A DNA stretch of 64,000 nt, from contig JABDCA010000010.1 in NCBI GenBank assembly GCA_013288345.1, positions 6,340 to 70,339 of the forward strand, written 5' to 3'. The position numbers were made by a program, and so were the translations under genes. This document shows, piece by piece, positions 11,007-50,900 of the stretch (positions are counted from its first letter, which is position 1; each line of letters starts with the position of its first letter). Under the pieces are notes generated by a model that saw only the letters and a list, made by a program, of their open reading frames with translations, did no database searches and was not told the origin of the DNA. Origin of the DNA: Bacteroidota bacterium. GTDB taxonomy: Bacteria; Bacteroidota; Bacteroidia; JABEUT01.

Positions 11007-11600
11007 ATGTTTACAGGCATTATAGAAGAACCGGGAATTGTAAAAGATATTGTAAAGGAAAAAGGCAACCTGTTGATTACGGTTGAGGCTTCGTTTACTT
11101 CAAAGTTAAAACTCAACGAGAGTGTATCGCACAACGGAGCATGCCTATCGGTAATACCCTTTACTAAAAAACAATATAGGGTAATGGCAGTTCAGGAAAC
11201 ACTGGACCGCACCAATTTAAAACATCTTAAAAAAGGAGACACTCTAAATTTAGAGCGTTCGATGCTTGCTAATGGTAGCATTGATGGGCATTTTGTACTG
11301 GGCCATGTAGATGGTGTTGTAAAATGCGCTTCGGTAAAAAAACTGGCAGGCAGCCATGTCTTTACTTTTACCTGCAGCAAAAACGACCTCAACTATATTG
11401 TAGAAAAAGGCTCAGTAGCGCTTAATGGGGTAAGCCTGACAATAGCCAATGTTACTGCAAAAGGGTTCTCAGTTGCTATTATACCATATACGTTCAAGCA
11501 TACCAATTTTCAGAACATCAAGCCCGGAAATGAGGTGAATGTAGAATATGATGTACTCGGTAAATACGTGGTGCAGTACCTGTCTAGGTCTAAAAAATAG
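11007..11600 (+). CDS. ribE: riboflavin synthase alpha chain
   Basis: MFTGIIE start and two lumazine-binding repeats (SVSHNGACLSV, SVALNGVSLTI). Confidence 0.95.
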   Translation: MFTGIIEEPGIVKDIVKEKGNLLITVEASFTSKLKLNESVSHNGACLSVIPFTKKQYRVMAVQETLDRTNLKHLKKGDTLNLERSMLANGSIDGHFVLGHVDGVVKCASVKKLAGSHVFTFTCSKNDLNYIVEKGSVALNGVSLTIANVTAKGFSVAIIPYTFKHTNFQNIKPGNEVNVEYDVLGKYVVQYLSRSKK

Positions 11601-12546
11601 CTTTCGCTATCCTCTTTACCGATTCTGATTTACCCATGGTATAAAAGTGAATACATGGTGCACCTGCCTTAATAAGCTCTTTGCACTGCTTTATACTCCA
11701 TTCAATTCCAATTTCTTTAGCTTCAGCATCGCTCTTGCATTTATCAATAGCATCTGCTAATTCTTCAGGTATTTCCACATGAAAGAATTTAGGCAGGCTT
11801 TGCAATTGCTTTTTAGTTGAAAGTGGCTTTACTCCCGGAATGATAGGGGTATTAATACCAAGTTCTTTACACAGCTTCATGTATTCGAAATACTTTTCGT
11901 TATTATAAAAAAGCTGGGTAACAATATATTCAGCACCGGCTTCCACCTTTGCTTTCATATGTTTCAGGTCAGTACGGATGTTCGGGCATTCAAAATGTTT
12001 TTCAGGGTAACCGGCAACGCCAATACAAAAATCGAGGTGGCTGTTAACCTCCGATGCTTCTTCATTCAGGTATTTACCGCTATTCAGTTCCATAATTTGC
12101 TTTACCAGGTCAAGTGCATGTTCATTGCCCCCTGGTTCAGGCACAAAGTGAGCCTCAGATTTTACCGCATCGCCACGCAAAGCCAATACATTATCAATAC
12201 CTAAAAACTGCAAGTCGATAAGTGCATTCTCGGTTTCTTCTTTACTAAAACCGCCGCATATAAGGTGAGGTACTGTATCTATTTTATACTTATTGATAAT
12301 TGAAGCGCAAATACCTACCGTACCCGGACGTTTACGCACAGGTATCCTTTCAAGGTAACCACCTTCGCGTTTTTTGTAAATATATTCCTCACGGTGGTAA
12401 GTAACATTTATAAACGATGGGTGAAACTCCAACAATGGGTCAATACTCTCATTTATCGATTGTATGCTTTTACCCTTTAACGGTGGCAATATCTCGAATG
12501 AGAATAAGGTCGATTTCGATTTCTTAAGATGGTCTATTACTTTCAT
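11590..12546 (-). CDS. metF: methylenetetrahydrofolate reductase
   Basis: 318 aa. FSFEILPPLKG N-terminus and the TIM-barrel MTHFR pattern. The 3' end overlaps ribE by 11 nt (convergent). Confidence 0.9.
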   Translation of the reverse strand: MKVIDHLKKSKSTLFSFEILPPLKGKSIQSINESIDPLLEFHPSFINVTYHREEYIYKKREGGYLERIPVRKRPGTVGICASIINKYKIDTVPHLICGGFSKEETENALIDLQFLGIDNVLALRGDAVKSEAHFVPEPGGNEHALDLVKQIMELNSGKYLNEEASEVNSHLDFCIGVAGYPEKHFECPNIRTDLKHMKAKVEAGAEYIVTQLFYNNEKYFEYMKLCKELGINTPIIPGVKPLSTKKQLQSLPKFFHVEIPEELADAIDKCKSDAEAKEIGIEWSIKQCKELIKAGAPCIHFYTMGKSESVKRIAKAIF

Positions 12547-25086: not shown

Positions 25087-25161
25087 GTAAGCCCCAAACC
25101 CCTAAAGGGGCTTTAGAACCAAACGTGTAATTTAAAGCCCCTTTAGGGGTTTGGGGCTTAC
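25087..25161. repeat. 29-bp perfect inverted repeat (REP-like), 17-nt spacer
   Basis: GTAAGCCCCAAACCCCTAAAGGGGCTTTA (25087-25115) is the exact reverse complement of 25133-25161. Each arm contains its own CCCCTAAAGGGG palindrome. Confidence 0.9.
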
Positions 25162-26576: not shown

Positions 26577-26603
26577 GTCAGTAACAAAGGAGGATCACCC
26601 AAT

Positions 26604-26631
26604 TAGCCCTTTCAGAGAAATCTGGAAGGGC
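26604..26631. terminator. hairpin between the convergent DUF2807 gene and the KAP NTPase gene
   Basis: AGCCCTTTCAGA-GAAA-TCTGGAAGGGCT, a 12-bp stem with one G:U pair. The U tracts are weak on both strands. Confidence 0.5.
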
Positions 26632-26653
26632 TTGTTATGAATTTCCAATTGCT

Positions 26654-29600
26654 CTAATATGCAATTACTAATTCTAATATTTCCAATAAAAATACGCAGT
26701 TCGTTTTTGTAAAAGGAACAGCACTTTCAATACCAGGGATACGTAAATACGCTTCATTAGAATCTTGCATTTCCTTTTTTGTTTTTGAAATCAGCTCAGA
26801 ATCCTGCCTATTTATATAATATAGCATAGTTTCCATTAAGATTGTAAGCCCAGGTTCATTTTGCCATGGATTTGCTCTCCCATTTTTTGAATATTTGCTT
26901 ATAAGCAGATTCTTGCAAAGTAAATACCGATAATAGAAGATTCTTATTTTCCTTGGCGTTGCATCAGTCCATTTTTTTGTAATCTCTGAGAGCGTGACAA
27001 TTTCATTTGCTGTAAGTTTACTGAATTGATTCTGAAATAAAACCCTTTCATCCTTAGCTTTCTTAATTTCTGGAATCGAGGTGATATTACCATTTCTTTC
27101 ACGTAGTATAAAGTCTCCCCCTTTTGCAACTGAACTACCGTCTTTAGATAGAATATCTAAGTTCAGTTTGCCCATTTGATCGGGTATATCAGAACTATCT
27201 GCGTTGCTTCTCAAATATTCCTTATGAAACTTTACATATTCAACGTCATCTCCTGAAACTGTTGTTCCGCTTTTTTTCATCTCATTTCTAATTTTTAAAT
27301 CCTCCGCTTGATTAATTGTCTTTTCATCAACCTCTTTATTTAAAAGCTTAAAAAGAAATTCTTGTTTTTGTTCTTCAGTTAGTATTCCAAGTTTAATAGC
27401 AGAAATGAAAATTTTATCAAGATATTCTGAGGTGAGTTCCTTAATATCGAATGCAATATTTTCTTTTATTTGAGTCTTATTAAATAAATGTAAGTATTTA
27501 ATATGTATTGCATTTTTTAATATTCTTTCATCTATTGGAGCTACTATTATTAAGCGTTTACATATCTCCTCATCTTCAAGCATAACCCTCAAAGCATCAA
27601 TATTTTGGATTATTTTATCTTCTGTACACCTATCAGTATCTTCAACAATTAAAATTATTTTCTTCCTTTTTGTTCCAGAGTATGGAATCCAAACCTTTAA
27701 TAATTTAATAATTTCATCCTGTATGTCAGCCTGTATGCCCAATGATTCTTTATAAGAATGTCTTGCACTATATTTCTTTATAAGATGAATCGCTTTTATT
27801 GAGTATTCTTTATAAGTATCTTTTAACACATAAAGAACAACTATTGGAATGGAAATTAAAGAATATGCTGTTTTACTGTAAAAAGAGTACATAATCGAAA
27901 ATGCAAGAGTGAAGACTACAAGAAATAAATATGAGTATATAGGCCACTTACCATGTCTCGCAGTATTTAATTTTAATAATCGTTTCCAATATTGATATCC
28001 ACCGAAAAAGCTTTCACCTTTATTCAGATAATTTTTGGCAAATAACTCATATAAATATGCCCATGAAGCTGGAGCCTCTTGATATTTCCATGCATGATAA
28101 GTTAACCAGATATATTCCTTATCTTTTTTAAGGGAAAGTACTTTTTTAATTTGTTCTATTAAATACGTTTTTCCTCGTCCCCATCTTCCAAAAATGCCAA
28201 CCATTTGCCCTTTTTCCTCCGGAAGATCATCTATAATTTGAGCCAGATCAGAGGCCAAATCGGCAACTCCCATTGCGGGTTCAATATTTTCATTTCGCAT
28301 TGAAAAACTAGTTTTATGTGCATGTAAAACATTAAAATCAGTTTTTGATTCAAGCGTTTCAATTTCTTTTGGTATAACATGATCCACATTATCTTTATCT
28401 ACTGATAGTGCATCTTTCAACAAATCCTCTAAAGATTTGAAGTCTCTATATAAATTCATTGTTTTGATATCAGGAATCTGAATTTTAAATTCAGCATCGC
28501 CGAGTTGTATAACCTTAAAAAGTCCATCAAATCTGCTCAGAAGAACAATAAAATCTATTAACTCGCTTATTCCATATCCACTTGCCCTACTAAGCATAGT
28601 GTCAGTAATTGGCGCATCATTGCCATCTTTTTCTAAAATTGATTTAATAGCAAAAATTGTGTCCTCAACACCTTTTATATAATTAGAATATGGATCAATA
28701 GTCCAAATGCCATAAAAAGTAATAAGGCTGCCTCCTTGCAAGAGATTTGTGTCAATTAATGTGGGATCATAATCCCTAGGAAGCTTATTCCAATGCCTTG
28801 AAATAATTCTCGAATATGAAGGTTCGCGCCCTCCTTTATTTTCCTTGAAATTTGAATAAGCAACATTTAACCAATACTCATCGTCTTTATTAAGTATTAC
28901 TGGAGGAAAAGAGAAGATTTTTTTCCCTTCAGGAATTTCCCCTGTCTTTTTTGTAGTTTTAGTCAATTGCCTATTCCAATCTTCTAGTATATCTGCTACA
29001 ATCCTCCGTCTGTTTGAGATAATTCTGAAATCATATAGTCTATTATCATAATATGCATAATGGCTGGGGAAATTAAATGGTCCATCATCAATCGCCGCAA
29101 AGTATAAAAAACTATTTGCATTTCTTTCAGTTCTTTTATGAATTTGCATTGCAGTATTTTCGACGCGCAAATAGTTCTTATTGCTTTCACTCGATTGGCT
29201 TTTTATAAATATTACATAATTAATATTTTCATCCTCAAATAATTTTTCCGTATTAAATGTTGCGCCATTTTTGTCATCCGTTATTGGTTCAGTATGGGAT
29301 ATTGCAAATTCATAATCATCAAGAAAATTTCTCAACCTATCTAGATATAACCTATCTGTATCAGTTGTGATTATTAATATATTAGGATGTAGACCTGGTT
29401 TTGTTTGTCTTGGTTTTTTCTCCTTTTCAATTCTTAGTAGTTCCTTAGCATGTATCAGTCCTTTTTCCTCAAATGAAACTGATCCTTTATCTATAGTTTG
29501 ATATTGAAAAGCTATATTTCCGTTTATTTTCAATAGCTTAAGTACTCTATTAAACTCATCTTCATCTATACAGTACGCTTTTAAATACTCTGTTATCTTA

Positions 29601-29989
29601 TAGGAAATGTTTTTAACAACTGCTCCGCCTTCCTTATAGCATTTCAATAAATAGTAATCACATTTTGATTCAAAATCTCTTGGGTAATCTGCTAATCGTA
29701 CAATATGTTCAATTAAAGTAGGGGTAATTATCGTTTCTTTATCAATTTGCCATTCATTATTAAAAAGCATTGCCTGAAAAACCCACTTGTTTGATTCAGT
29801 TATGCTTGCCTTAACTAAGTCCAAATCACCTAACCTAATTGTATAATTGTTATTATTATACATTAAATCATATTGGTAGAAATTATCCTCAGTTCTAGAT
29901 ACGGCGCTAACTTGCAGATTAGTAAATGGGCAAGCCATAAAAACTCCAACGCCACCAAATTTGAAGCCATCTTCTTTTTTTTCAGCCAT
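26654..29989 (-). CDS. KAP-family P-loop NTPase with long uncharacterised N-terminal extension
   Basis: 1111 aa. Walker A GIFGRWGRGKT (nt 28169-28198 encode G598-K607) and Walker B IILIVEDTDR (27629-27658). Two hydrophobic helices, aa 682-722 (27824-27946), sit between them, which is the KAP hallmark. Markedly AT-rich: 17/60 and 18/60 G+C at 27301-27360 and 28501-28560. Confidence 0.8.
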   Translation of the reverse strand: MAEKKEDGFKFGGVGVFMACPFTNLQVSAVSRTEDNFYQYDLMYNNNNYTIRLGDLDLVKASITESNKWVFQAMLFNNEWQIDKETIITPTLIEHIVRLADYPRDFESKCDYYLLKCYKEGGAVVKNISYKITEYLKAYCIDEDEFNRVLKLLKINGNIAFQYQTIDKGSVSFEEKGLIHAKELLRIEKEKKPRQTKPGLHPNILIITTDTDRLYLDRLRNFLDDYEFAISHTEPITDDKNGATFNTEKLFEDENINYVIFIKSQSSESNKNYLRVENTAMQIHKRTERNANSFLYFAAIDDGPFNFPSHYAYYDNRLYDFRIISNRRRIVADILEDWNRQLTKTTKKTGEIPEGKKIFSFPPVILNKDDEYWLNVAYSNFKENKGGREPSYSRIISRHWNKLPRDYDPTLIDTNLLQGGSLITFYGIWTIDPYSNYIKGVEDTIFAIKSILEKDGNDAPITDTMLSRASGYGISELIDFIVLLSRFDGLFKVIQLGDAEFKIQIPDIKTMNLYRDFKSLEDLLKDALSVDKDNVDHVIPKEIETLESKTDFNVLHAHKTSFSMRNENIEPAMGVADLASDLAQIIDDLPEEKGQMVGIFGRWGRGKTYLIEQIKKVLSLKKDKEYIWLTYHAWKYQEAPASWAYLYELFAKNYLNKGESFFGGYQYWKRLLKLNTARHGKWPIYSYLFLVVFTLAFSIMYSFYSKTAYSLISIPIVVLYVLKDTYKEYSIKAIHLIKKYSARHSYKESLGIQADIQDEIIKLLKVWIPYSGTKRKKIILIVEDTDRCTEDKIIQNIDALRVMLEDEEICKRLIIVAPIDERILKNAIHIKYLHLFNKTQIKENIAFDIKELTSEYLDKIFISAIKLGILTEEQKQEFLFKLLNKEVDEKTINQAEDLKIRNEMKKSGTTVSGDDVEYVKFHKEYLRSNADSSDIPDQMGKLNLDILSKDGSSVAKGGDFILRERNGNITSIPEIKKAKDERVLFQNQFSKLTANEIVTLSEITKKWTDATPRKIRIFYYRYLLCKNLLISKYSKNGRANPWQNEPGLTILMETMLYYINRQDSELISKTKKEMQDSNEAYLRIPGIESAVPFTKTNCVFLLEILELVIAY

Positions 29990-30106
29990 TTACATATCAA
30001 TTATAGATAGTAAAAATAACCAAATTGTCAACCTACGCAACGTACAAATCCCTCACTTACTAATCCTACAAATGCGTTATATTTTAGTGATTATAGAAAT
30101 AAAAGA

Positions 30107-30114
30107 TAGATTTG
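30107..30114 (+). promoter_or_regulatory. -7 box TAGATTTG (M16 peptidase)
   Basis: Matches TAnnTTTG. 32 nt upstream of ATG 30146. Confidence 0.45.
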
Positions 30115-30145: not shown

Positions 30146-32956
30146 ATGAAAAAAATCTTCTCGCTATTTTCCCTTGCAGTAATTCTATTGGCACTTGTTC
30201 AACCTGCTGTTGCACAAAATTTAGATAAGCCTATTCCGAATGACTCATTATTGCGTACAGGCACCCTGCCCAACGGAATGAAGTATTACATACGTAAGAA
30301 TGTAAAACCTGAAAAACGCGCTGAGCTTAGGCTTGCTGTCAATGCAGGTTCGGTGTTAGAGAACGATGACCAGCAGGGCCTTGCTCACTTTAACGAGCAC
30401 ATGGCCTTTAACGGAACAAAGAATTTTGCACATAACGACATTGTTAACTTCCTTGAACTATCGGGTGTAAAATTCGGCGCTGATTTGAATGCATATACCA
30501 GTTTTGATGAAACTGTATATATGCTGCAGGTACCTACCGATTCTGAAAAAATATTCAACAAAGGATTTCAGATCTTAGAAGACTGGTCACATAATTTAAG
30601 CTTCGATTCAGTAGAGATCGATAAAGAACGTGGAGTAGTTATTTCTGAAAGGCGTTTGGGTTTAGGTGCATTCCAACGTATGCAAAATGAATACTGGCCT
30701 ATATTATTTCAAAACTCACGTTATGCCGACAGGGTGCCTATTGGTAAACTAGATATACTCGAAAACAGCAAACACTCTACACTTAAACAGTTTTACAAAG
30801 ACTGGTACAGGCCCGATTTAATGGCTGTAATAGCTGTTGGAGATTTTGATGTGGACAAAGTAGAGAAAATGATAAAAGAAAAGTTTGGTGCAATCCCTGC
30901 CCGAAAAGATGAAAGGCCACGTACCTTTTATGATGTACCCGATAGCAAATCATTACTGATTGCAAAAGCTACCGATAAAGAAAACCCTTACAACATTATT
31001 GAACTGGTATATAAACATGCCAAGCAACATACCCGCACACTTGCTGATATGAAAAGAGATATGATATCGGAAATGTTTTCGGGCATGCTGAATGGCAGGT
31101 TACAAGAACTTCAAAAACAATCGAACCCGCCATTTTTATTTGCTAATGCTGGTATTGGTGGTTTAGTTAGAACAAAAGATGCTTTTACAGGATATGCAGC
31201 AGTAAAAGATTCAGGCATGATGGCAGGCATTGAAGCCCTGCTTACCGAATGCGAAAGAGTAAAGCGTTTTGGCTTTACTGCTACAGAACTTGACAGAGAA
31301 GGGAAGAAATTATTACGCCGCGCTGAAAAAGAAGCGAAAGAAAAAGATAAAACAGAATCGAAGAACTATGTAGGTGATTATGTGCAGGCATTTTTAGAAG
31401 ATGAGCCTGTGGCCAGTGCAAAATTCAATTACGACTTCTACAAGCAATATATTGGCACCATTACGTTAGATGACGTAAACCGTGTTGGCAAAGAATGGAT
31501 AACCAGTAACGGAGAAAATGCAGTTATAGTTATACAATCACCAAGCAAGGACAGCGCACTTATGCCATCTGATAATACTATCCGTTCGGTTTTTGAAAGC
31601 GTGCAGAAAAAAGAACTGAAACCTTATGTAGATAAAACATCGAACAAACCGCTTATGGCTACCAAGCCTGCACCGGGTAAAGTTGTTGCCGAAAAAGAAA
31701 TAAAAGAACTTGGCATTACCGAATGGACCTTATCGAACGGAATAAAGGTGGTTGTAAAACCTACCGATTTTAAAAATGATGAAATAGCCTACAACTCATA
31801 CCGTTGGGGCGGCACTTCGCTATACCCCGATAAGGATTACATGTCGGCAAGTAACGCTGCTGCCATTGTTGATGAATCGGGTATAGGTCAATTCAATTCA
31901 ACCTCGCTGGAAAAAATGCTGAGTGGAAAGATAGTATCTGTTTCACCAAACATAGGTGAACTTTCAGAAGGCCTCAGGGGCAAATGCTCTCCGCAAGATC
32001 TGGAAACAGCTATGCAATTAATAAATCTTTATTTCACACAGCCACGTAAAGACGATACGGCTTTCAATGCATACATATCACAAAACAAAGGCTTACTTGA
32101 GAACCGCAGCGTAGATCCTGCCAGTGCATTCAGCGATACAGTGGGTGTAACTATGAGTTCATATAACTTCCGCCACAGGCCTACAACCATTGCCACATTA
32201 AGTGAAATTGATTTGAACCGTGCATTTGATATTTACAAAGAAAGGTTTGCTGATGCGGGAGGATATACCTTCTTTTTTGTAGGAAGCTTTAAACCTGCTG
32301 AATTAAAGGCATTGGTTGAAACGTATATTGGAAGTCTGCCTGCAAAACAAACAAACCCAATGTGGAAAGATGTAGGAGTAGTTACACCTAAAGGGCTTAT
32401 AAATAAAACAGTAAACCGTGGTAAAGAACCTAAGGCAACGGTTCAACTTATTTTCTCCGGGCCATTTGAATATACCCGCAAGAACAGGATGGATATGCAG
32501 GCTTTATCAGCATTGCTAAGTATAAAATTACGCGAGGAGTTAAGAGAAGAAATGAGCGGAGTATATGGTGTTGGAGCAAATGGTTCTGCTACACATTACC
32601 CAAAGCAAGAATATAAGTTTGCCATTTACTTTGGCTGCGCACCCGAAAGAGTAGAAGAACTGCTTACTGCGGCATTTAAAGAAATTGACTCGGTAAAGAA
32701 TTTTGGTTGCACCGATATTAACCTGCAAAAAATAAAAGAGACCTTTAAAAGGCAGCGCGAGGTTGATTTGAAGGACAATAATTTCTGGCTATCGGCTATT
32801 ACACAAAACTACCAGAACAATGAAAATATTTTAGATATTCTGGAATTCAATAAATATGTTGATGGCCTTACAAGCGATGATTTTAAACGCCTGGCAAAGC
32901 TTTACTTTAACATGAACAATTATGCCAAGTTTGTGTTGATGCCTGAGAAACAGTAA
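30146..32956 (+). CDS. M16 (insulinase/pitrilysin) family zinc peptidase, fused double-unit form
   Basis: 936 aa. Signal peptide and inverted zinc motif HFNEHMAFNGT (HxxEH). Confidence 0.9.
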   Translation: MKKIFSLFSLAVILLALVQPAVAQNLDKPIPNDSLLRTGTLPNGMKYYIRKNVKPEKRAELRLAVNAGSVLENDDQQGLAHFNEHMAFNGTKNFAHNDIVNFLELSGVKFGADLNAYTSFDETVYMLQVPTDSEKIFNKGFQILEDWSHNLSFDSVEIDKERGVVISERRLGLGAFQRMQNEYWPILFQNSRYADRVPIGKLDILENSKHSTLKQFYKDWYRPDLMAVIAVGDFDVDKVEKMIKEKFGAIPARKDERPRTFYDVPDSKSLLIAKATDKENPYNIIELVYKHAKQHTRTLADMKRDMISEMFSGMLNGRLQELQKQSNPPFLFANAGIGGLVRTKDAFTGYAAVKDSGMMAGIEALLTECERVKRFGFTATELDREGKKLLRRAEKEAKEKDKTESKNYVGDYVQAFLEDEPVASAKFNYDFYKQYIGTITLDDVNRVGKEWITSNGENAVIVIQSPSKDSALMPSDNTIRSVFESVQKKELKPYVDKTSNKPLMATKPAPGKVVAEKEIKELGITEWTLSNGIKVVVKPTDFKNDEIAYNSYRWGGTSLYPDKDYMSASNAAAIVDESGIGQFNSTSLEKMLSGKIVSVSPNIGELSEGLRGKCSPQDLETAMQLINLYFTQPRKDDTAFNAYISQNKGLLENRSVDPASAFSDTVGVTMSSYNFRHRPTTIATLSEIDLNRAFDIYKERFADAGGYTFFFVGSFKPAELKALVETYIGSLPAKQTNPMWKDVGVVTPKGLINKTVNRGKEPKATVQLIFSGPFEYTRKNRMDMQALSALLSIKLREELREEMSGVYGVGANGSATHYPKQEYKFAIYFGCAPERVEELLTAAFKEIDSVKNFGCTDINLQKIKETFKRQREVDLKDNNFWLSAITQNYQNNENILDILEFNKYVDGLTSDDFKRLAKLYFNMNNYAKFVLMPEKQ

Positions 32957-40279: not shown

Positions 40280-43200
40280 TTGACATTATCAAAAAAATAC
40301 CTGCCTGTTGCAGTAGCAGTAATGCTTTTGCTCGTTTTCAATAAAACGTGGGCAAAAAGTGAGGCACCTGCATTTTCAAAATACAGCGTTACACTGGTGG
40401 TTGATACCCCTCCGGAAACCAATAATGAACCATTAAACTTACCATTCCCTTTTACCGATCAATCAGGAAACGGTATGCCGCTGTATGTACCCGATGGTGG
40501 GTTTATGTTATCGAACCCATCGAACCTTAAAACAGAAATAGAATACAACCCTAAAACAGGTAAGTACGAAATTTACCAGAAAATAGGTGGTATAGATTAC
40601 CGCATGCCTACCGAAATGGATTCGGACCAGTTTATGGATTACATGAACCGTAAATCGGAGCATAGTTATTTTGAACAGAAAGTAAAAACCACAGCTAAAG
40701 AAGAACAGAAAAAAGGACTTATACCACCTATAAAAATTGGCGGCAAATTATTTACCGACATCTTTGGAACACCTTATGTGAATATACGCCCGCAAGGTTC
40801 TGCTGAACTTACTTTCGGGTTTACTAATTCTATATTAGAGAATCCGGCATTACCGGTAATACAGCGAAGCTTAACTACTTTTAACTTCGATGAGAATATA
40901 CAGTTGAATGTTACGGGAGAAATTGGAGATAAGCTCAAACTATCTACCACATACAATACCAAGGCCACATTCAGTTTCCAAAATCAGATGAAATTGAATT
41001 TTAACGGCCACGAAGACGATATTATAAAAAGCATTGATGCAGGTAACATAGCCTTTAACCTTCCGGGAACCCTTATAACAGGCAGCCAGAGCTTGTTTGG
41101 TGTAAAACTTAAAACACAATTCGGAAGGCTGACATCAACTACTGTGTATGCGCAGGAGCAAGGAAATAAGAAAACCATTTCGGTACAAAATGGCGCACAA
41201 ACAACCAATTTCAATGTAAAGTGCGATCAGTACATGGCTAACCAGCACTTCTTCTTATCGCACTTTTTTAGGGACCAATACGATAAGGCATTATCGAACC
41301 CTCCCATTATAAACTCAGGTGTAACTATTACAAAAATTGAGGTATGGATAACCAACACATCGAGTGCCACACAGAACACACGCGATATTGTTGCCCTTAC
41401 AGACTTAGGTGAATCGGAACCATATTTGACCAACAAAGGAAGCGTCTCAATGAACCCTAAATACAATTCAACAAATATCTACCCCCCTGCTGATACATTA
41501 AATTTTGAAAATCCAAGCCAGCTTGAAGGAACATACCCCAGCATAAAAACTCCGGTAACAGCAGTAAGCGGGCTTATTTCAGCTCATCTTACACAAGTTA
41601 CCGATTTCGAAAAAATAGATCTGGCTCGAATGTTATCACCTTCAGAATACACACTGAATGCTAAGCTTGGTTATATATCATTAAAGCAACCTCTCAATTA
41701 TGATCAGGTGGTTGCTGTCGCATACCAGTACACCTACAACGGCGGTGTTTTTCAGGTTGGACAATTTTCAACAGACGGTGTGCCTACTACTAATGAGCTC
41801 ATTGTGAAAATGCTTAAAAGCACTAACGTAAGTCCTACTACTCCTATGTGGCAGTTAATGATGAAAAACATTTACCCGCTTGGATCATACCAGATAAATT
41901 CGCAGAATTTCATGTTGCAGGTTTGGTACTCAAACCCTGCAACCGGTGTAGATATACCTTACCTGCCGGTGGCATCGGGCCCTTTGAAGGGTAATTTACT
42001 ATTACAAGTAATGGGCCTCGATCAGTTAGATGCAGAAGGTGATAAAGTTCCGGATGGAGTATTTGACTTTGTAAACGGAGTAACTATTGATGCTGCAAAT
42101 GGTTTGGTAATATTCCCAAGCGTTGAACCCTTTGGTTCGTACCTGAGCAAAAAATTTGCTACCGATCATTATACTACTACCGATGCACAACCTTACATCT
42201 TTCAATCGTTGTATGACTCGGTATTAACGGCAGCGCAACAGCAGCCTAACCTTGACAGATATTGGATACGGGGCTCCTTCCAGTCCTCGGTCAGTTCCGA
42301 CATATCGCTCGGTGCATTAAACGTGCCTCAGGGCTCGGTGTTGGTTACAGCAGGCGGAATAAAACTTACAGAGAATGTTGATTATACTGTTGACTACACA
42401 TTGGGCCGCGTAAAAATATTGAACCAGGGCTTATTGAGTTCGGGCACGCCTATACAGGTATCGTTAGAGAATAATGCATTGTTCAGCATACAATCTAAAA
42501 CCTATTTCGGGCAGCACTTCGATTACATGGTATCGAAAGATTTTAACCTTGGCGCTACGGTTGTAAATTATACCGAACACCCGCTTACACAAATTGTAAG
42601 CATTGGGCAGGAGCCTGTTTCAAATACCATGATAGGGCTTAATGAAGATTTTAAAACACCAGCACCATGGCTTACCGATGCAATAGATAAATTACCTTTT
42701 ATAAGAACCAAAGCACCATCAGAAATTACTTCAAGCACAGAGATTGCAGCAATGATACCCGGCCACCCGGCATATATTGGTACCACAGGCAATGCTTACA
42801 TTGACAACTTTGAAGGAAGCGAAAGTTTTATTGATATATCGCAACCCTATTCGTGGTCTATTGCCAGTATACCGCAAGGGCAGCCAACATTATTTCCGGA
42901 AGCTGCACCCATAAGCACCACCAATACTTCAGCAGGGTTTAACAGGTCGAAGGTGGCATGGTATGTAGTAGATCCACTCTTTCAACAGCAGACAGCAGGG
43001 CTAACTCCGGGTAGCGAAACAGCAACAGATATGTCTGACAACTTTAGCCGTATGATATTACAAACTGAAGTTTTCCCTAACGAGCAATCGGCTACAGGAA
43101 CGCCGCTTAACCTTGCTGCGCTGAATGTTGGATTCTATCCGCAATACAGAGGGCCATATAACTATGATACTGCGAACGTAAATCCGGCGGATGGAACATT

Positions 43201-46200
43201 CCTGAATACTCAAGCCAAATGGGGCGGCATACAGCGGTCAATACAGGAGACAGACTTTGAAGCAAACAATATTGGGTTTATTGAATTCTGGATGATGGAC
43301 CCGTATAACTCTGATAACAGTGCTACGGCTACAGGCGGCAACCTACAAGGGCCAAATAACAGCGGCTCATTATACTTCGATCTGGGTGATGTATCGGAAG
43401 ATGTGATACCCGATGGGCTAAAAAGTTTTGAAAACGGATTACCCACCAATGCAGCCGATGCAGCCGATTCTACCAATATTAATAACCCATGGACACAAAC
43501 AAAATGGGGGCATGTTCCGGTAAATCCTTCATTGGTAAATGCATTTGACAATAACACTGCATCGCGTCCATTTCAGGATATCGGGCTCGATGGTTTATCA
43601 GATGCACAGGAGCAGTCTTTCTTTGGTAAGTATCTGAATACAATGGCCAGGATGTACGGAACTTCTTCTGCCGCATATATAAATGCAAATAACGATCCAT
43701 CATCCGACGATTACCATTACTACAGAGGAGATGATTATGACAATACTGCTAAAACTGTATTGAACCGTTACATGGCCTATAACGGAATGGAGGGCAACTC
43801 ACCAACAGAAGGGCAATATGTAAGTCAAAACTCCGGTGGTTATCCTACAACACAAACCACCCTGCCCAATACCGAGGATATTAACCAGGATAATACTTTA
43901 AGTACCGATGAAACCTATTATGAGTACCAGGTAAAATTTGATAAAAGAGATATAAACCCCGCTAATGTGGGTAATAACTTTATTACAAATGCTTTTTTAG
44001 CGCCGGCTGCATCAACCCCCAATGGCAACAAGCAGGTTTACTGGTACCAGTTCAAAATTCCTATTTCGGAGTTTGTAACTAAGGTAGGCCCTATATCCGA
44101 TTTTAAATCGATACGTTTTATACGTATGTATTTTAAAGGTTTTGATAAACCGGTAATGTGCCGCTTTGCAAAACTGGAATTAGTGCGTGATGACTGGCGC
44201 AAATTTTCAGGCACCCTATTAGCCCCGGGCAACTATTTGCCAAACAACAACAACCTTACCACATTTAATATGTATGGTGTTAACCTCGAAGAGAATGCCA
44301 GCCGTACACCTGTAAACTATGTAATTCCGCCGGGTATACAAAGGCAGTTGAATTTGCAATCTGCTAACCTGGTGCAGGAGAATGAAGGATCATTGGCATT
44401 ACAACTTTGTAATTTGCAAGACGGTGATGCACGCGGTGTATATAAAAATGTGCAGCTCGATTTACGCGCTTACAAAAATCTGCAAATGTTTGTTCACTGC
44501 GAATCGGCTGACCCTGCACATTTATTAAAGACAGGAGATGTAACTGCATTCATCCGGATAGGAAGCGATTTTACAAATAACTACTACGAATACGAAGTGC
44601 CATTGCAGGTTACACCAACAGGTAGTTACAGTACCAATAATGCAAATGATCAGGAATCTGTTTGGCCACAGGCAAACCAAATGGACATTATACTTACCAA
44701 CCTTGAGAATGCAAAACTTAAGCGCGATGCTGCAATGGGTAGCAATACGTCGGCATTGTCGCTTGAAATACCTTACACTGTTAAAGATGGCAACAATAAT
44801 ATAACCGTTGTAGGTAACCCTACCATTAGTAACGTGCAGGTAATAATGTTAGGTGTACGTAACCCCAAGCAAACATCATCATCAGTGGGGGATGATGGTC
44901 AACCTAAATGTACAGAAGTATGGTTTGATGAATTGCGCATGACCAATTTCTCTGAAAAAGGTGGATGGGCCGCTATAACAAGAGAAACAGCCAAACTGGC
45001 TGACTGGGGTACACTATCTGTAGCAGGAAACATTTCAACACCGGGGTTTGGAAGCTTAGAAACTACAGTGGGCAATTTGAGTCGTGAAACAGATGTTGGC
45101 TATACAGTTGCTACAAACCTTGAAATGGGCAAACTGCTTCCGCCAAGCTTGAACATAAGCATACCTACTTATTTAAGTTATGGGCGACAATATATAATAC
45201 CTGAATATAATCCATTAGATCCTGATATTTTATTAAGCCAGTCGCTTGCTAATTTGTCGAAAGATTCGGCCAATAATTTAAGTAACGAGGTGTTGACAAT
45301 AACCACCCAAAAAAGTGTGAACTTTACCAATGTGCATGTAAACAAGGGTAAAAATGCCAAGAAGAGCCATTTTTACGACATTCAGAATTTTGCAGCAACC
45401 TATGCCTATACCGAACAGGATCATACCGATATAAATACCATACACAGTTATACGCGAGACTATAAAGGTGCACTTACCTATTCCTATTCCTTCAAACCAA
45501 AGGCTATACAACCACTCATAAAATCAGAGTTCTTTAAAAAGAGCAAATACCTCGCTTTAATACGCGATTTTAATTTCTACCCAATGCCTGATAAATTGAG
45601 TGTATCAGCGAATATAGACAGAGGGTATAATGACTTTCAGTTACGGGTTATTATACCCGGGGCCGATATTGTATTGCCCGATGACGTGAGTAAAACATTT
45701 AACTTAATACGTAATTATAATTTTGTTTACCCAATTACAAAATCTATAAAGTTCGATTACACTGCCACCAACGATTCACGTGTTATGGAACCCGAGGGCA
45801 GGCCTATTACACAACAATCAGACAGGGATAGTGTAAAGCAGGCCTTTTTAACACGCCAGGAGAATACCGATTTTAAGCAAACTGAAAATTTAAGTTATGA
45901 TATACCCATAAACAAACTGCCTTACCTCGATTTTATAACAGCAAGCGCACGCTATACCGCCAACTACGAATGGATGCACGCACCGTTTGCACAACCTGAC
46001 CTTGGATCTACTATTCAGAATTCGAACACACAGCAAATAAACGGGCAGCTAAATATGACCATGCTTTATAATAAAATTCCTTTCTTTAAAAAATACCTGC
46101 AAGATGATAAACAAAAGCCCGGTGGTGGCAGGCCGCAGCCAGGCAGAACAGGCCCTTTGAACAAAGGCCAGAAACCTGTGGTGCAAACCCAACATACACT

Positions 46201-47701
46201 CGATAGCATAAAACGCGCAAACAGCGATACAACGCAAACAACAGGATACTATGTAACTAAATACCTTGCTCATTTAATTACTTCGGTAAAAAACATATCG
46301 ATTACATACAGCAAAAACCAGGGCATGGTATTGCCGGGCTATAATGACTCTACACGCTTTTTTGGTATGGACGATCGCCATGGATGGATACCCGGACCAG
46401 CATTTGTATTTGGAGGCGGACAACAATTAGATACTATTCACTTAAAAAACCCGAATGGGACTTATTCAATCCACAGTGTTCCAAAATTTATTAAACAAGT
46501 GATACGGAATAAATGGATGGATACTGCAAGCAATATATATACACCATTTACTACTATATATACTGAAACATACAGCATACATGCATCATTAGAGCCTATA
46601 CCCGATTTTAAATTAGACCTTACTGCTACACATACCAAATCGCAGACCACCAGTCAATTTATTCACGACTCGCTTGATGTGCCTAATAACGTTGAATACA
46701 CTTTAATTAATGGATATACAGAGGCCGGTAATTTCAGCATGTCATATTTTATGCTGCCTACTATGTTTAAAGGCAATACCGCAGGCGATACACGTTTATT
46801 TGATGCTTACCTTAGCAACAGATCTATTATTTCCAGGAGACTTGGCCTGGCAAAAGGTAGTCAGTCAAATGGGTTTGTACCAACGCACGATACATTAGCA
46901 GCACATTACGACGGCTATAGTTTAACTTCTCAGAACGTAGCTATACCGGCATTTCTTGCCGCCTATTCAGGCAAAAGTGCAAGTACAATACCACTTACTG
47001 CATTCCCTGCAATACCATTCCCGAACTGGACCATATCTTATTCAGGCTTACCTAAACTTATTCCATGGATAAAGAATAATACGCAGAGTGTTACTATCAG
47101 TAGCGCCTATACTTCATCGTACAGTGTAGGAAGCTATAACTATAACCTATTGTATAATCAAGATCCAACTACTCCCTGGTCACGCAATATAAATGGCGAT
47201 TTTATCCCTCAGGACCAAATACCATCGGTGGCGCTTACTGAACAGTTCTCTCCGTTGATAAAAATTGGCATTACGCTAAAGAGCAATATCATGTCGAATA
47301 TTGAAATACGTACTGACAGGGAAATTGCTATGAATATGAGTGACCTGAGTATCAACGAAGTGCATGGGCAGGAATATATTGCTGGCTTGGGGTATAAAAT
47401 TAAAAACGTTGTCTTCCCTATAAAAATAAGCAGCAAACCACTTAAGAATGATTTGACCATTAAAGTTGATATCTCGCTACGGGAGAATGAAACTATACTT
47501 CGTAATTCAGAGAACCTGTCGAACCAGGTTACAGGCGGAACATCTATCCTGTCAATCAAGTCGCAGGCGGAATACAATATAAACCAGCGTGTTAGTTTCA
47601 GGCTTTTCTTCGATAAGATTATTAACACCCCGTTCATCTCATCATCCTACCCTACTTCAACAATGGATGGAGGAATTGCTATCCGGTTCACGCTTTCGTA
47701 A
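40280..47701 (+). CDS. sprA: T9SS outer-membrane translocon / gliding motility protein SprA (Sov)
   Basis: 2473 aa. TTG start with a signal peptide. Size, composition and the ruvA-sprA synteny are typical of Bacteroidota SprA. Confidence 0.85.
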   Translation: MTLSKKYLPVAVAVMLLLVFNKTWAKSEAPAFSKYSVTLVVDTPPETNNEPLNLPFPFTDQSGNGMPLYVPDGGFMLSNPSNLKTEIEYNPKTGKYEIYQKIGGIDYRMPTEMDSDQFMDYMNRKSEHSYFEQKVKTTAKEEQKKGLIPPIKIGGKLFTDIFGTPYVNIRPQGSAELTFGFTNSILENPALPVIQRSLTTFNFDENIQLNVTGEIGDKLKLSTTYNTKATFSFQNQMKLNFNGHEDDIIKSIDAGNIAFNLPGTLITGSQSLFGVKLKTQFGRLTSTTVYAQEQGNKKTISVQNGAQTTNFNVKCDQYMANQHFFLSHFFRDQYDKALSNPPIINSGVTITKIEVWITNTSSATQNTRDIVALTDLGESEPYLTNKGSVSMNPKYNSTNIYPPADTLNFENPSQLEGTYPSIKTPVTAVSGLISAHLTQVTDFEKIDLARMLSPSEYTLNAKLGYISLKQPLNYDQVVAVAYQYTYNGGVFQVGQFSTDGVPTTNELIVKMLKSTNVSPTTPMWQLMMKNIYPLGSYQINSQNFMLQVWYSNPATGVDIPYLPVASGPLKGNLLLQVMGLDQLDAEGDKVPDGVFDFVNGVTIDAANGLVIFPSVEPFGSYLSKKFATDHYTTTDAQPYIFQSLYDSVLTAAQQQPNLDRYWIRGSFQSSVSSDISLGALNVPQGSVLVTAGGIKLTENVDYTVDYTLGRVKILNQGLLSSGTPIQVSLENNALFSIQSKTYFGQHFDYMVSKDFNLGATVVNYTEHPLTQIVSIGQEPVSNTMIGLNEDFKTPAPWLTDAIDKLPFIRTKAPSEITSSTEIAAMIPGHPAYIGTTGNAYIDNFEGSESFIDISQPYSWSIASIPQGQPTLFPEAAPISTTNTSAGFNRSKVAWYVVDPLFQQQTAGLTPGSETATDMSDNFSRMILQTEVFPNEQSATGTPLNLAALNVGFYPQYRGPYNYDTANVNPADGTFLNTQAKWGGIQRSIQETDFEANNIGFIEFWMMDPYNSDNSATATGGNLQGPNNSGSLYFDLGDVSEDVIPDGLKSFENGLPTNAADAADSTNINNPWTQTKWGHVPVNPSLVNAFDNNTASRPFQDIGLDGLSDAQEQSFFGKYLNTMARMYGTSSAAYINANNDPSSDDYHYYRGDDYDNTAKTVLNRYMAYNGMEGNSPTEGQYVSQNSGGYPTTQTTLPNTEDINQDNTLSTDETYYEYQVKFDKRDINPANVGNNFITNAFLAPAASTPNGNKQVYWYQFKIPISEFVTKVGPISDFKSIRFIRMYFKGFDKPVMCRFAKLELVRDDWRKFSGTLLAPGNYLPNNNNLTTFNMYGVNLEENASRTPVNYVIPPGIQRQLNLQSANLVQENEGSLALQLCNLQDGDARGVYKNVQLDLRAYKNLQMFVHCESADPAHLLKTGDVTAFIRIGSDFTNNYYEYEVPLQVTPTGSYSTNNANDQESVWPQANQMDIILTNLENAKLKRDAAMGSNTSALSLEIPYTVKDGNNNITVVGNPTISNVQVIMLGVRNPKQTSSSVGDDGQPKCTEVWFDELRMTNFSEKGGWAAITRETAKLADWGTLSVAGNISTPGFGSLETTVGNLSRETDVGYTVATNLEMGKLLPPSLNISIPTYLSYGRQYIIPEYNPLDPDILLSQSLANLSKDSANNLSNEVLTITTQKSVNFTNVHVNKGKNAKKSHFYDIQNFAATYAYTEQDHTDINTIHSYTRDYKGALTYSYSFKPKAIQPLIKSEFFKKSKYLALIRDFNFYPMPDKLSVSANIDRGYNDFQLRVIIPGADIVLPDDVSKTFNLIRNYNFVYPITKSIKFDYTATNDSRVMEPEGRPITQQSDRDSVKQAFLTRQENTDFKQTENLSYDIPINKLPYLDFITASARYTANYEWMHAPFAQPDLGSTIQNSNTQQINGQLNMTMLYNKIPFFKKYLQDDKQKPGGGRPQPGRTGPLNKGQKPVVQTQHTLDSIKRANSDTTQTTGYYVTKYLAHLITSVKNISITYSKNQGMVLPGYNDSTRFFGMDDRHGWIPGPAFVFGGGQQLDTIHLKNPNGTYSIHSVPKFIKQVIRNKWMDTASNIYTPFTTIYTETYSIHASLEPIPDFKLDLTATHTKSQTTSQFIHDSLDVPNNVEYTLINGYTEAGNFSMSYFMLPTMFKGNTAGDTRLFDAYLSNRSIISRRLGLAKGSQSNGFVPTHDTLAAHYDGYSLTSQNVAIPAFLAAYSGKSASTIPLTAFPAIPFPNWTISYSGLPKLIPWIKNNTQSVTISSAYTSSYSVGSYNYNLLYNQDPTTPWSRNINGDFIPQDQIPSVALTEQFSPLIKIGITLKSNIMSNIEIRTDREIAMNMSDLSINEVHGQEYIAGLGYKIKNVVFPIKISSKPLKNDLTIKVDISLRENETILRNSENLSNQVTGGTSILSIKSQAEYNINQRVSFRLFFDKIINTPFISSSYPTSTMDGGIAIRFTLS

Positions 47702-47983: not shown

Positions 47984-50900
47984 ATGGAGCCTATAACTAC
48001 CCTTACAGGATACATACTCAGCAGATTTTTGCACGGAATACGAATAGTGTTGCTTACAACAATTGCAGGTTTATTTATTTACCATACGAGTATAGCACGT
48101 AACATAAAAAATAAAGCACCGTCAACCGAAGATGCCGCAGCCGGTATCCGGGGCATACCTTCCGTAATGAACGAAAGCCTGGGTATGTCTCCGGAAAATT
48201 CCACACCGGATATGGCTTTTGAAAAAACAGCAAACAATAATGATGAAACAAAAAACTACAACACACATCAAAACAACTACGAACAACTTAAGGCCCCTAC
48301 TTCAATAAATGAAATTGCAGCACACCCTTTTACCACTCAAGCAGGCAAGCCCCAACCGGGCGAAGAGATAGAGATTGCCTCTATTAAGCTGCAAGCTTAC
48401 CATATACTGTTTACTGTTCAGCAAAAAACCGGTGCATCTGATGCAGAGATGAACCTCTTCCAAAACTATTACTACGATAAATTATTTGCCAGCGATGTAA
48501 GTACATTCTGGAAGCAAGTAGAGAACAAACAAATTGTAACAGATGCCGATATTCAGAAATATGCCCAACAGAAAATTGATGAATATGTAAACTTGTTCAT
48601 TGTATTTAGGGGAATTGAAAAAGATTACCCAAGCAGCATTACTGAATACAGCAGCCATAATACACACGCGCCAATGGCAGCATGTAACCCGGGTTGCGAT
48701 AATATAGGTTTTGAAAGCGGAAACCTGAATGCATGGAGCGCATATTATGCTCAAAATACATCAAGTACAAGCACATTTTCTACCACAACACCTACAGGTG
48801 GCGCATGTGGTGCAGTTCAACGGTCTGCCTTAGACCCTAATACAAATACTTACCAGGTCGCTATGACATCGGGTGCAGGTACTGACCCCGTTGCCGGTTC
48901 GCTGATACCAGTAGTTTGTCCTACCGGCGGTTCTTACTCCTGCCGTATTGGCGATAGCACGCGCAACGGTGCACAGATAGGTATTTTAGAGCAAAGCTTT
49001 AATGTTACCAAAGCAAATGCAAACTTTACTTATATGTATGCAGTAGTATTGGAAAACCCAAACCATGCATACACACAACAACCTTATTTCAATGTACAAA
49101 TGCTCGACCAGAATGGCAACCCTATACCAAACTGCGGTAGTTATTCTGTAGTATCGGGTCCCGGTTTGCCCGGCTATACTCCTATATATTACCCAAGTGA
49201 TAACGATACCGTTTACTGCAAACCATGGACCACGGTGTATGTGCCATTACAAGCATACATTGGCCAATGCGTAACTATAGTTGTAACTGTGTCTGACTGT
49301 TCTTTAGGCGGACACTTTGGTTATGCCTATTTCGATGCAACCTGTTTAGCAGGTATCATTACTTCTTTACCTACTCTATGCAACAATATTGCAACCTTAA
49401 CTGCCACTGCTCCTGCAGGTGCATCTACCTATAACTGGATGGGGCCATGTATAGTTGGCCCTACAAATCAGCAAAGCATAACAGTAAGTTGCCCCGGTGT
49501 ATATAAGGTAGCCATTACCAGTGTTATAGGCAGCAGTTGTTCCGATACTATTGTAGATACAGTAACAGGCAGCATAGCTCCTACAGTATCTGTAACACAG
49601 CCCGGAACCAACATAAGCTGCTTTGGCGGAAGTAATGGTACTGCTACGGCTGCCGGAAGTGGTGGTGCTGGTGCGTTCACATATCTATGGTCGCCAAGCG
49701 GATCAACAAATGCAACAGCAACCGGTTTATCTGCCGGTACATATAGTGTAACCGTAACCGATGCAAATGGATGTAAAACAACTGCAACAACAACCCTTAT
49801 ACAACCTACAGCATTAAATATTACTACCGCAAGCACTCCTGCAAAATGCAATGGTGGTAATTCAGGCAGTGCGAGCATTAATGTAAGCGGAGGTACAACA
49901 CCTTATACTTATTCATGGACACCAAATGTGGGTAATGCAGCCACAGTAAATAATCTTAGTGCAGGCACATATACTGTAACCGTTACTGATGCACACAGTT
50001 GCACTCAAATTGTGAATGTAACAGTTACCCAACCTACGGCATTATCGTCAAGTGTTTCAGCAACACCTGCAAGCTGCAATGGTGGCAACAATGGTTCGGG
50101 TGCAGTAGTAATTAACGGTGGAACACCGCCTTACAATTATAGCTGGGCACCAAACAGCGGATATACTTCTTCAGCTACTAATCTTATTTCGGGCACTTAT
50201 ACCATAACATCAGCAGATGCTAACGGATGCCCTATAATCTCTACACTAAATGTTGCAGAGCCAAGCGCTATTACTACTTCTGCATCTTCATCAGGTGCAA
50301 GTTGTTATGGCGGTATAACAGGTAGTGCAACGGTTATTGCAAATGGCGGAACATTGCCTTATACTTATTCATGGGCACCTTACGGCGGAAATAGTTCTGT
50401 AGCAAATGCTCTTAGCGCAGGCACATATACAGTTACTGTTACCGATGGGCATAATTGCAAGAATACAACTACTGTTCCCGTAACGCAACCTGCAATATTA
50501 GGCGCATTAAACTTCTCTTCGAATGTTAGTTGCAGTGGCGGAAACAACGGCACAGCAAAAGTAATTGCCACAGGCGGTATTACGCCTTATAGTTATGCGT
50601 GGTTACCAAATGTGAGTGTAACCGACAGCGCTAAAAATTTACCTATAGGAGTTTATGCAGTAATAGTAACCGATGCACACAATTGCAGCACGACAGCAAC
50701 TATAAATATTGTACAACCAAGCTTGGTAATTGCAACACAAGGGCCTTCTAGTAATATTAGTTGTAATGGCGGAAATAACGGAAGCACATCTGTGGTAGCA
50801 ATAGGCGGAGTACCTCCTTATACCTACGCATGGTCTCCTAAAGTCGGAACAAGTTTTGCAGCCAATAATTTACCGGCCGGTACATATACAGTAACTGTTA

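Follow-up and report, generated by a model that had tools for sequence, protein, structure and literature searches.

On the minus strand of a 64,000-nucleotide stretch of Bacteroidota genomic DNA (contig JABDCA010000010.1, positions 6,340 to 70,339; here referred to as the window), a single gene encodes a KAP-family NTPase of 1111 amino acids (aa) that, on balance, was probably gained by horizontal transfer and acts against phage as a membrane-anchored conflict system made up of this one gene. This reading follows from the KAP features of the protein, the conflict-type modularity of its family, a TIR-like fold ahead of the NTPase, the empty sites found in syntenic relatives together with a low guanine-plus-cytosine content of the gene as a whole (GC) and at third codon positions (GC3), and the defence neighbourhoods of its homologues. 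The overall assignment, to a putative horizontally acquired defence NTPase, is well supported, and the identity of the effector step is its weakest link. The same interpretation had been offered in a first-pass annotation of the window, and every computational test that the annotation had named as able to refute it, from the KAP profile match and the inserted hydrophobic hairpin to the polymorphism of the site and the surroundings of homologues, has come out in its support. An identical protein is present in public collections (P0001). The open reading frame (ORF) and its NTPase module comprise the following features:

26654-29989, minus strand: whole ORF, 1111 aa, stop codon included in the coordinates, in one uninterrupted frame
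26915-28258, minus strand: KAP-family P-loop NTPase module, aa 578 to about 1025, from Pfam PF07693 and the C-terminal motif
28166-28198, minus strand: Walker A motif GIFGRWGRGKT, aa 598-608
27824-27946, minus strand: two hydrophobic helices, aa 682-703 and 708-722, a predicted membrane hairpin from Kyte-Doolittle hydropathy
27629-27658, minus strand: Walker B motif IILIVEDTDR, aa 778-787
26990-27298, minus strand: variable insert, aa about 898-1000, inside the C-terminal part of KAP, unconserved between P0001 and P0002
26918-26959, minus strand: TPRKIRIFYYRYLL, the canonical motif at the C-terminus of KAP, aa 1011-1024, with almost no variation across the family
26657-26914, minus strand: C-terminal tail, aa 1026-1111, about 85 aa, recognised by its conservation, ending LELVIAY and belonging to no family

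The frame is open over all 1111 codons, as first claimed, and its match to Pfam KAP_NTPase (PF07693, aa 578-897, E=5.5e-11) scores 42.7 bits against a gathering score of 20; the same family was matched in all nine KAP-bearing relatives scanned. Both nucleotide-binding motifs are of the KAP type, GxxGxWGxGK[ST] for Walker A and hhhhDDxDR for Walker B, and among 20 full-length relatives G598, G601, W603, R605, G606 and K607 of the former and D784, D786 and R787 of the latter are invariant. Each NTPase motif that is invariant across the family is kept in the window protein. The Walker B coordinates of the first-pass annotation stand, as does its Walker A motif, the start of which had been placed at 28169 by a slip of 3 nt (true position 28166).

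The gap between Walker A and Walker B is 169 aa long (about 170 had been estimated) and holds both of the hydrophobic segments described earlier, whose 19-residue Kyte-Doolittle maxima are 1.78 and 1.41. Two hydrophobic peaks between Walker A and B were seen in all of the approximately 35 relatives examined, kept in position and unconserved in sequence, a pattern consistent with a membrane hairpin in which hydrophobicity is all that selection maintains. The KAP family is reportedly characterised by just such transmembrane helices inside the P-loop domain, between Walker A and B. With two helices in the hairpin, the accessory domains and the two parts of the NTPase would all lie on the same side of the membrane, presumably the cytoplasmic one.

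The roughly 250 aa that follow the NTPase had been left without a family and proved to be mostly the end of the KAP domain. After the variable insert comes TPRKIRIFYYRY (aa 1011-1022), which has the form of the KAP C-terminal motif PR..[KR]. In two relatives, P0036 and P0028, the equivalent TPR..R motif falls inside the Pfam match, at profile position ~282-290 of 293, so the KAP domain of the window protein should end at about aa 1025, beyond its own Pfam match. Among relatives, 107 to 152 aa separate the AIKLG motif from the TPR motif, and the stretch from the TPR motif to the C-terminus is constant at ~101 aa. The ~85-aa tail is still without a family, and a Pfam scan of the isolated N- and C-terminal pieces of the window protein returned no match.

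Relatives were collected with an exhaustive phmmer search of 1.84 billion representatives, using aa 1-575 as the query, which recovered 131 proteins at E <= 1e-3, of which 25 reached E <= 1e-30. A word-indexed search with the whole protein or a family profile found the protein itself and one relative only, and one with a domain-C profile found a single protein; orphan status judged from the word-indexed search alone would mislead. Local domain mapping of the relatives divides the N-terminal region into three separable modules:

29465-29935, minus strand: domain A, aa about 19-175, beta hairpins followed by a MarR-like winged helix, from domain mapping and an AlphaFold2 (AF2) model, no Pfam family
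28940-29392, minus strand: domain B, aa about 200-350, a divergent TIR-like fold, from the Pfam matches of relatives and Foldseek
28385-28927, minus strand: domain C, aa about 355-535, a helical subdomain and a winged helix, from an AF2 model and domain mapping, no Pfam family

The first-pass annotation had called these ~590 aa unassignable, which holds for the window protein against Pfam and does not hold more generally, since a TIR-like fold and two winged-helix modules were found. In the AF2 model spanning domains A and B (predicted local distance difference test score, pLDDT, 92.2), domain A is a pair of beta hairpins plus a winged helix, and Foldseek matched it to winged helix-turn-helix (wHTH) proteins of the MarR type, e.g., 6pco_A and 2qvo, with a probability of 1.0. 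Four of its residues are invariant, namely C20 (in a CP[IF]T motif), Y40, W80 and P103. Neither Pfam nor, in a profile search, the PDB sequences gave a match to domain A. Domain C was modelled with a pLDDT of 92.8 and gave partial wHTH matches only when compared with the PDB by Foldseek (CodY, ArsR and MarR; E about 0.03, query TM-score about 0.33). Its matches in a viral fold library were generic winged-helix ones, its members scored only scattered sub-threshold matches in Pfam, and its profile retrieved nothing significant from PDB sequences. Domain C was present in 116 of the 132 retrieved proteins. Domains A and C are not duplicates of one another, a relationship rejected by hhalign (probability 0.9%). 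The two closest relatives, P0002 (aa 1-105) and P0003 (aa 1-~120), encoded on L001 and L084, respectively, begin with an N-terminal extension that is absent from the window protein and from most other members.

Domain B appears TIR-like by fold and by transitive homology, not by its own profile score. Among 36 relatives, seven matched Pfam TIR_2 (PF13676; best E=8.9e-8) and three matched CAP12-PCTIR_TIR, and full-length P0045 reached 28.8 bits for a Pfam TIR model whose gathering score is 28. The AF2 model shows alternating strands and helices from aa 203 to aa 350, and Foldseek aligned the domain, at a probability of 1.0, with the SPARTA TIR-APAZ protein (8oz6_A; 145 columns, root-mean-square deviation 4.4), MyD88, TLR1, TIR-STING and the RPS4 TIR. 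One TIR_2-positive member was searched against PDB sequences with no significant match. Alignment of the same 36 members showed strong conservation of polar residues: S264 and R322 in all 36, D212 in 35, D320 in 34, and D301 and D302 in 31 each. Column 282 is Glu or Asp in 25 members and Glu in 23. The conserved polar residues argue for a pocket, beyond what a scaffold would be expected to keep. The window protein and its closest relative are the only two of the 36 to carry a glutamate at position 277, four residues past the conserved aromatic Y273, a spacing that we take to be the classical W+4 of the catalytic Glu in TIR NADases.

The modules recombine. About 25 cluster representatives of ~1,000-1,200 aa have the full A-B-C-KAP architecture. 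Domains A and B together are also found fused to a restriction endonuclease fold of the REase_DpnII-MboI type (P0031), to an AAA_15/AAA_21 (ABC-type) ATPase (P0045 and P0048), or straight to KAP (P0036); B, C and KAP occur without A in P0041, and C with KAP follows various other family-less N-termini in many proteins. Where domain C is itself N-terminal, its C-terminal partners are Pkinase, Guanylate_cyc (a nucleotide cyclase), SLFN_AlbA_2 (Schlafen), Abi_C, CAP12-PCTIR_TIR (a Pycsar-type TIR) with SieB, and a weakly matching Nuc_deoxyrib_tr-like domain. Almost all fusion partners of these modules are conflict-system domains. Because one N-terminal module is paired with many outputs, nearly all of the conflict-system kind, domain C shows the pattern expected of a sensor or adaptor.

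The gene was inserted alone between host genes, as is seen when the window is compared with syntenic relatives, which were found by scanning metagenomes with the neighbouring DUF2807 protein. Its neighbours are a convergent DUF2807 gene and a divergent M16 peptidase gene, as first described, and two features mark its edges:

26634-30083, unstranded: segment of ~3.4 kb that is extra in the window relative to the empty sites of L090 and L089
26606-26631, unstranded: hairpin between the convergent stop codons, a probable terminator of the host DUF2807 gene, common to the empty-site relatives

The metagenomic contig L090 has the gene order of the window (LptD-like, amidase, sigma, anti-sigma, DUF2807, M16, MBL) at 58-91% protein identity, and its DUF2807 stop and M16 start are 136-139 bp apart with no ORF between them. 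The closest relative, L089 (DUF2807 76% identical), stops 88 nt beyond the stop codon. Nucleotides 4-58 of this tail match window positions 26580-26633, through the shared hairpin, and nt 62-87 match window positions 30084-30109 weakly (20/26, a score equalled in 10 of 500 shuffles); a much closer match (19/20) links nt 69-88 with the region upstream of M16 in L090. As both L090 and L089 keep the flanking genes without the KAP gene, an insertion of ~3.4 kb is indicated, and the polymorphism that had been proposed for the DUF2807-M16 junction is borne out: this is not a core gene. Besides the ORF, the extra segment takes in ~60-95 bp of upstream DNA that came with it and ~20 bp on the downstream side, and its right boundary is uncertain by about 35 bp. 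The hairpin at its left edge belongs to the host DUF2807 gene, since the empty-site relatives share it. No flanking direct or inverted repeats above chance, nearby tRNA gene or integrase were found around the gene.

In more distant L091 and L092 (around 11300-12100), both the KAP gene and the M16 gene (window 30146-32956) are absent and DUF2807 is followed directly by the MBL-fold gene; by this comparison of gene order, genes appear to have arrived at the DUF2807 junction on two or more occasions. Using M16 as the anchor in 80 GTDB genomes gave a best match of 66% identity and no synteny, and was uninformative about the empty site because no genome was close enough. L090 (Ga0206844_10047) and the P0002-bearing contig L001 (Ga0206844_10285) come from the same metagenome sample (JGI 3300021043).

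Composition agrees with the first-pass description of the gene as a compositional island. Its GC is 0.313, compared with 0.399 +/- 0.013 for stretches of equal length elsewhere in the window (z = -6.8), and is the window minimum; its GC3 is 0.234, compared with 0.370 +/- 0.032 for 18 other long ORFs.

An association of homologues with defence genes, which had been put forward as a check, was found at P0002, P0003, P0005 and P0010. P0002 has a SLFN_AlbA_2/HATPase_c_4 gene on one side and HEPN_LA2681 and 8xMP genes on the other. WYL, PNP_UDP_1 and HEPN_AbiV genes are neighbours of P0003. P0005 neighbours a Type I restriction-modification S subunit, two RVT_1 reverse transcriptases and DUF2779, with DUF6577 and AbiEii after it, and P0010 is followed by a SEFIR/TIR_2 gene. 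The family appears to come mainly from Bacteroidota-like genomes, judged by Por_Secre_tail neighbours, and tblastn (E <= 1e-5) found no relatives in annotated phages or plasmids. One full-length member, P0011 (ENA ERZ1426819), adjoins CrAss_Ring_1 and CrAss_Ring_2 genes and may be carried by, or lie beside, a crAss-like phage.

In the mechanism that we propose for such a system, the hairpin would hold the NTPase at the cytoplasmic membrane, on its inner face, and leave the remaining domains in the cytoplasm, and domain C, possibly with domain A, would serve as a sensor or adaptor recognising a phage product, either nucleic acid or protein. Recognition would shift the nucleotide state of KAP and lead to oligomerisation, as in STAND/Avs and SPARTA-type systems. 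Oligomerisation would gather the TIR-like domains into an NAD+-directed or related nucleotide-directed activity, and this activity would cause metabolic arrest and stop phage replication. A more ambitious version is doubtful enough that we offer it tentatively: domain C would be an undescribed, widespread invader-sensing winged-helix module mounted on at least seven kinds of output, here gating a membrane-tethered KAP switch that controls a non-canonical TIR-like enzyme whose catalytic carboxylate has moved between positions 277 and 282 among branches, the whole forming a new membrane-associated TIR defence family outside current defence-finder models.

Several observations weigh against the proposed defence mechanism, most of them concerning the TIR-like domain. 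The TIR matches of Foldseek carry weak E-values (3e-3 to 3e-2), the window protein has no Pfam TIR match (aa 200-357 at E <= 10, aa 198-349 at E <= 0.1), the domain-B profile recovers no TIR from PDB sequences, and it gave no alignment with the SARM1 TIR. Family-typical acidic residues are replaced in the window protein: the Glu that occupies column 282 in 23 of 36 members is Gln here and Val in the closest relative, and the Asp found at position 278 in 14 of 36 is Asn. Because of these replacements, the TIR-like domain of the window copy may be inactive or work differently. In proteins such as P0031, where A and B precede REase, the TIR-like domain is N-terminal to another likely effector, an arrangement as compatible with regulation or sensing as with effector action. 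Furthermore, the transmembrane status of the hairpin is a hydropathy prediction, and its second segment is short (~16 residues, peak 1.41). Two of the six homologues in contexts with enough flanking DNA, P0006 and P0009, have no recognisable defence genes beside them.

The replaced acidic residues of domain B also bear on a different assignment of the effector, which we think unlikely yet worth weighing seriously. The protein would still be a defence gene, and its effector would be the membrane-embedded KAP module, acting by PifA-like depolarisation or leakage or, like Tmn, by draining ATP and exporting ions; the role of the TIR-like domain would then be non-catalytic (oligomerisation, ligand binding or regulation). 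Such an arrangement would suit the position-conserved hairpin inside the NTPase of every relative, the occurrence of A+B modules upstream of other effectors (REase, ATPase), and the fact that KAP is the constant part in P0036 (A+B+KAP) and in many C+KAP proteins. There is precedent in earlier work, where PifA is described as causing membrane depolarisation and nucleotide leakage and as having no transmembrane helices, and the YobI-family NTPase Tmn as acting at the membrane, with ATP drain and ion export reported (PMC13001434). The invariant polar residues of domain B (S264, R322, D320, D301/D302), however, suggest more than a scaffold, and a hairpin of two helices is a membrane element of the smallest kind, in which no pore is apparent. 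EF_KAP, an experimentally studied KAP NTPase, also needed its fused non-NTPase region and did not behave like abortive infection (PMC13552941). The evidence on the effector points in both directions, and we keep the TIR-like domain as the favoured one.

A partner gene missing from the window, such as a HEPN, SEFIR/TIR or large ORF product seen beside homologues, would make the window copy an inactive orphan of a multi-gene system. The idea has some appeal given the close co-directional genes downstream of four homologues: HEPN_LA2681 95 bp after P0002 (L001 8332-9906), a 1675-aa ORF with no Pfam match 116 bp after P0003 (L084 13695-18722), a 964-aa ORF with no Pfam match abutting P0009 (L088 13283-16177), and the SEFIR/TIR_2 gene 79 bp after P0010 (L095 13403-14662). 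However, the immediate downstream gene differs in every context, so no partner is conserved, which points to a one-gene system; P0006, like the window gene, has a convergent neighbour instead, and the inserted segment holds this ORF only. Single KAP genes have also sufficed for protection (PMC13552941), and we regard the multi-gene alternative as improbable.

That the protein has no part in defence, being an accessory NTPase that works at the membrane in signalling or in a transcription-related process, or what is left of an acquired gene now in decay, is very improbable: two wHTH-containing modules that could bind DNA, the atypical residues at conserved acidic positions of domain B and the housekeeping neighbours in the window would suit it, but the intact 1111-codon frame with all family-invariant NTPase motifs, fusion partners that are almost all conflict-system domains, homologues in defence islands (P0002, P0003 and P0005), sporadic presence and foreign composition speak against it.

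Among known systems, the window protein is best filed with the single-gene KAP NTPase defence proteins, as a putative member with N-terminal modules of which two lack a family model. EF_KAP and three metagenomic stand-alone KAP NTPases, with fused C-terminal regions of no known family, protect Enterococcus faecalis from phage (PLoS Biol 2026, PMC13552941). For this type of protein both Walker B and the fused region were required, and the protection was unlike abortive infection (PMC13552941). The window protein resembles this group in being a single gene with a transmembrane helix inside the KAP NTPase domain, family-less fused regions and a setting in variable or defence regions. The two differ in that the extra region is C-terminal in the EF_KAP group, whereas the window protein has A, TIR-like B and C at its N-terminus; the EF_KAP group has Firmicutes hosts and was compared by description. 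More broadly, the STAND NTPase of effector-NTPase conflict systems can be exchanged for KAP (PMC8195603), and TIR effectors sit at the N-terminus of some NTPase-centred targets of diversity-generating retroelements, KAP types being part of that set (PMC10907252).

PifA of the F plasmid, which excludes phage T7, is likewise a KAP-family P-loop protein and a single-gene exclusion protein at the membrane. It has neither TIR-like nor winged-helix modules, and against its PADLOC model (PDLC02361) aa 573-640 alone align, with model positions 19-86 of 720 and 35 bits; membership was ruled out since the alignment is confined to the P-loop region. QatA shares a KAP-type P-loop and gives weak model matches, in which the Walker A region alone aligns. 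QatABCD was rejected at 39 bits for QatA (NCBIfam NF041923) against an equivalog cut-off of 600, with DUF2807 and M16 as neighbours and no QatB, QatC or QatD. A short P-loop match to PDC-S20 lies far below family level (PADLOC/NCBIfam), and NB-ARC and nSTAND_NTPase5 reached only E=0.13, which rules out PDC-S20 and STAND membership, respectively. Tmn is similar in that the domain of this P-loop NTPase is likewise interrupted by two transmembrane helices, and in being a single-gene membrane-associated phage defence. It is of a different P-loop family, with no Tmn match in the PADLOC scan, and is said to have no accessory domains, whereas the window protein has about 575 aa of them.

The proposed logic of sensor, oligomerisation switch and TIR effector is that of the TIR-bearing Avs/STAND, bNACHT, SPARTA TIR-APAZ and TIR-STING proteins, and SPARTA TIR-APAZ and TIR-STING are the best structural matches of domain B. 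In contrast to these NTPase-plus-TIR immune proteins, the window NTPase is a KAP with a membrane hairpin and not a STAND NTPase, there is no repeat-type sensor such as TPR, and the TIR-like domain lies between two other modules instead of at a terminus, with a catalytic Glu that is not securely placed.

The start of the gene may lie further in than annotated. Met18 (MACPFT...) is an alternative start and may be the true start codon; most relatives begin 3-8 residues ahead of the invariant Cys, and aa 1-20 (aa 1-18 correspond to window 29936-29989) were modelled at low confidence, with a pLDDT of about 61-65. Around the gene no convincing excess of promoters or terminators was seen, and a TAnnTTTG motif was not found upstream. 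Elsewhere in the window, an inverted repeat with perfectly matching 29-nt arms and a 17-nt spacer (25087-25161) lies in the gap between the anti-sigma and DUF2807 genes. The repeat is unique in the window, has a small palindrome inside each arm (CCCCTAAAGGGG), and exceeds an ordinary terminator in both length and perfection. Two very large ORFs lie on the plus strand, at 40280-47701 (2473 aa) and 47984-53143 (1719 aa).

The concept is less novel than it first seemed, since stand-alone KAP NTPases with fused regions had already been shown to be protective and the class was validated experimentally in 2025-2026 (PMC13552941). The accessory regions of KAP proteins had been described as having no recognisable similarity, whereas that of the window family can be read as a TIR-like fold and two recombining modules. 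Domain C, without a Pfam family and with at least seven kinds of partner, is a possible new bait for the discovery of defence genes. The clean insertion of one gene, with two empty-site relatives, shows that such genes can land outside defence islands. The family also gives mutational handles (K607, E783/D784, E277/Q282, S264, R322 and the hairpin) on how a membrane-inserted P-loop switch is coupled to its effector.

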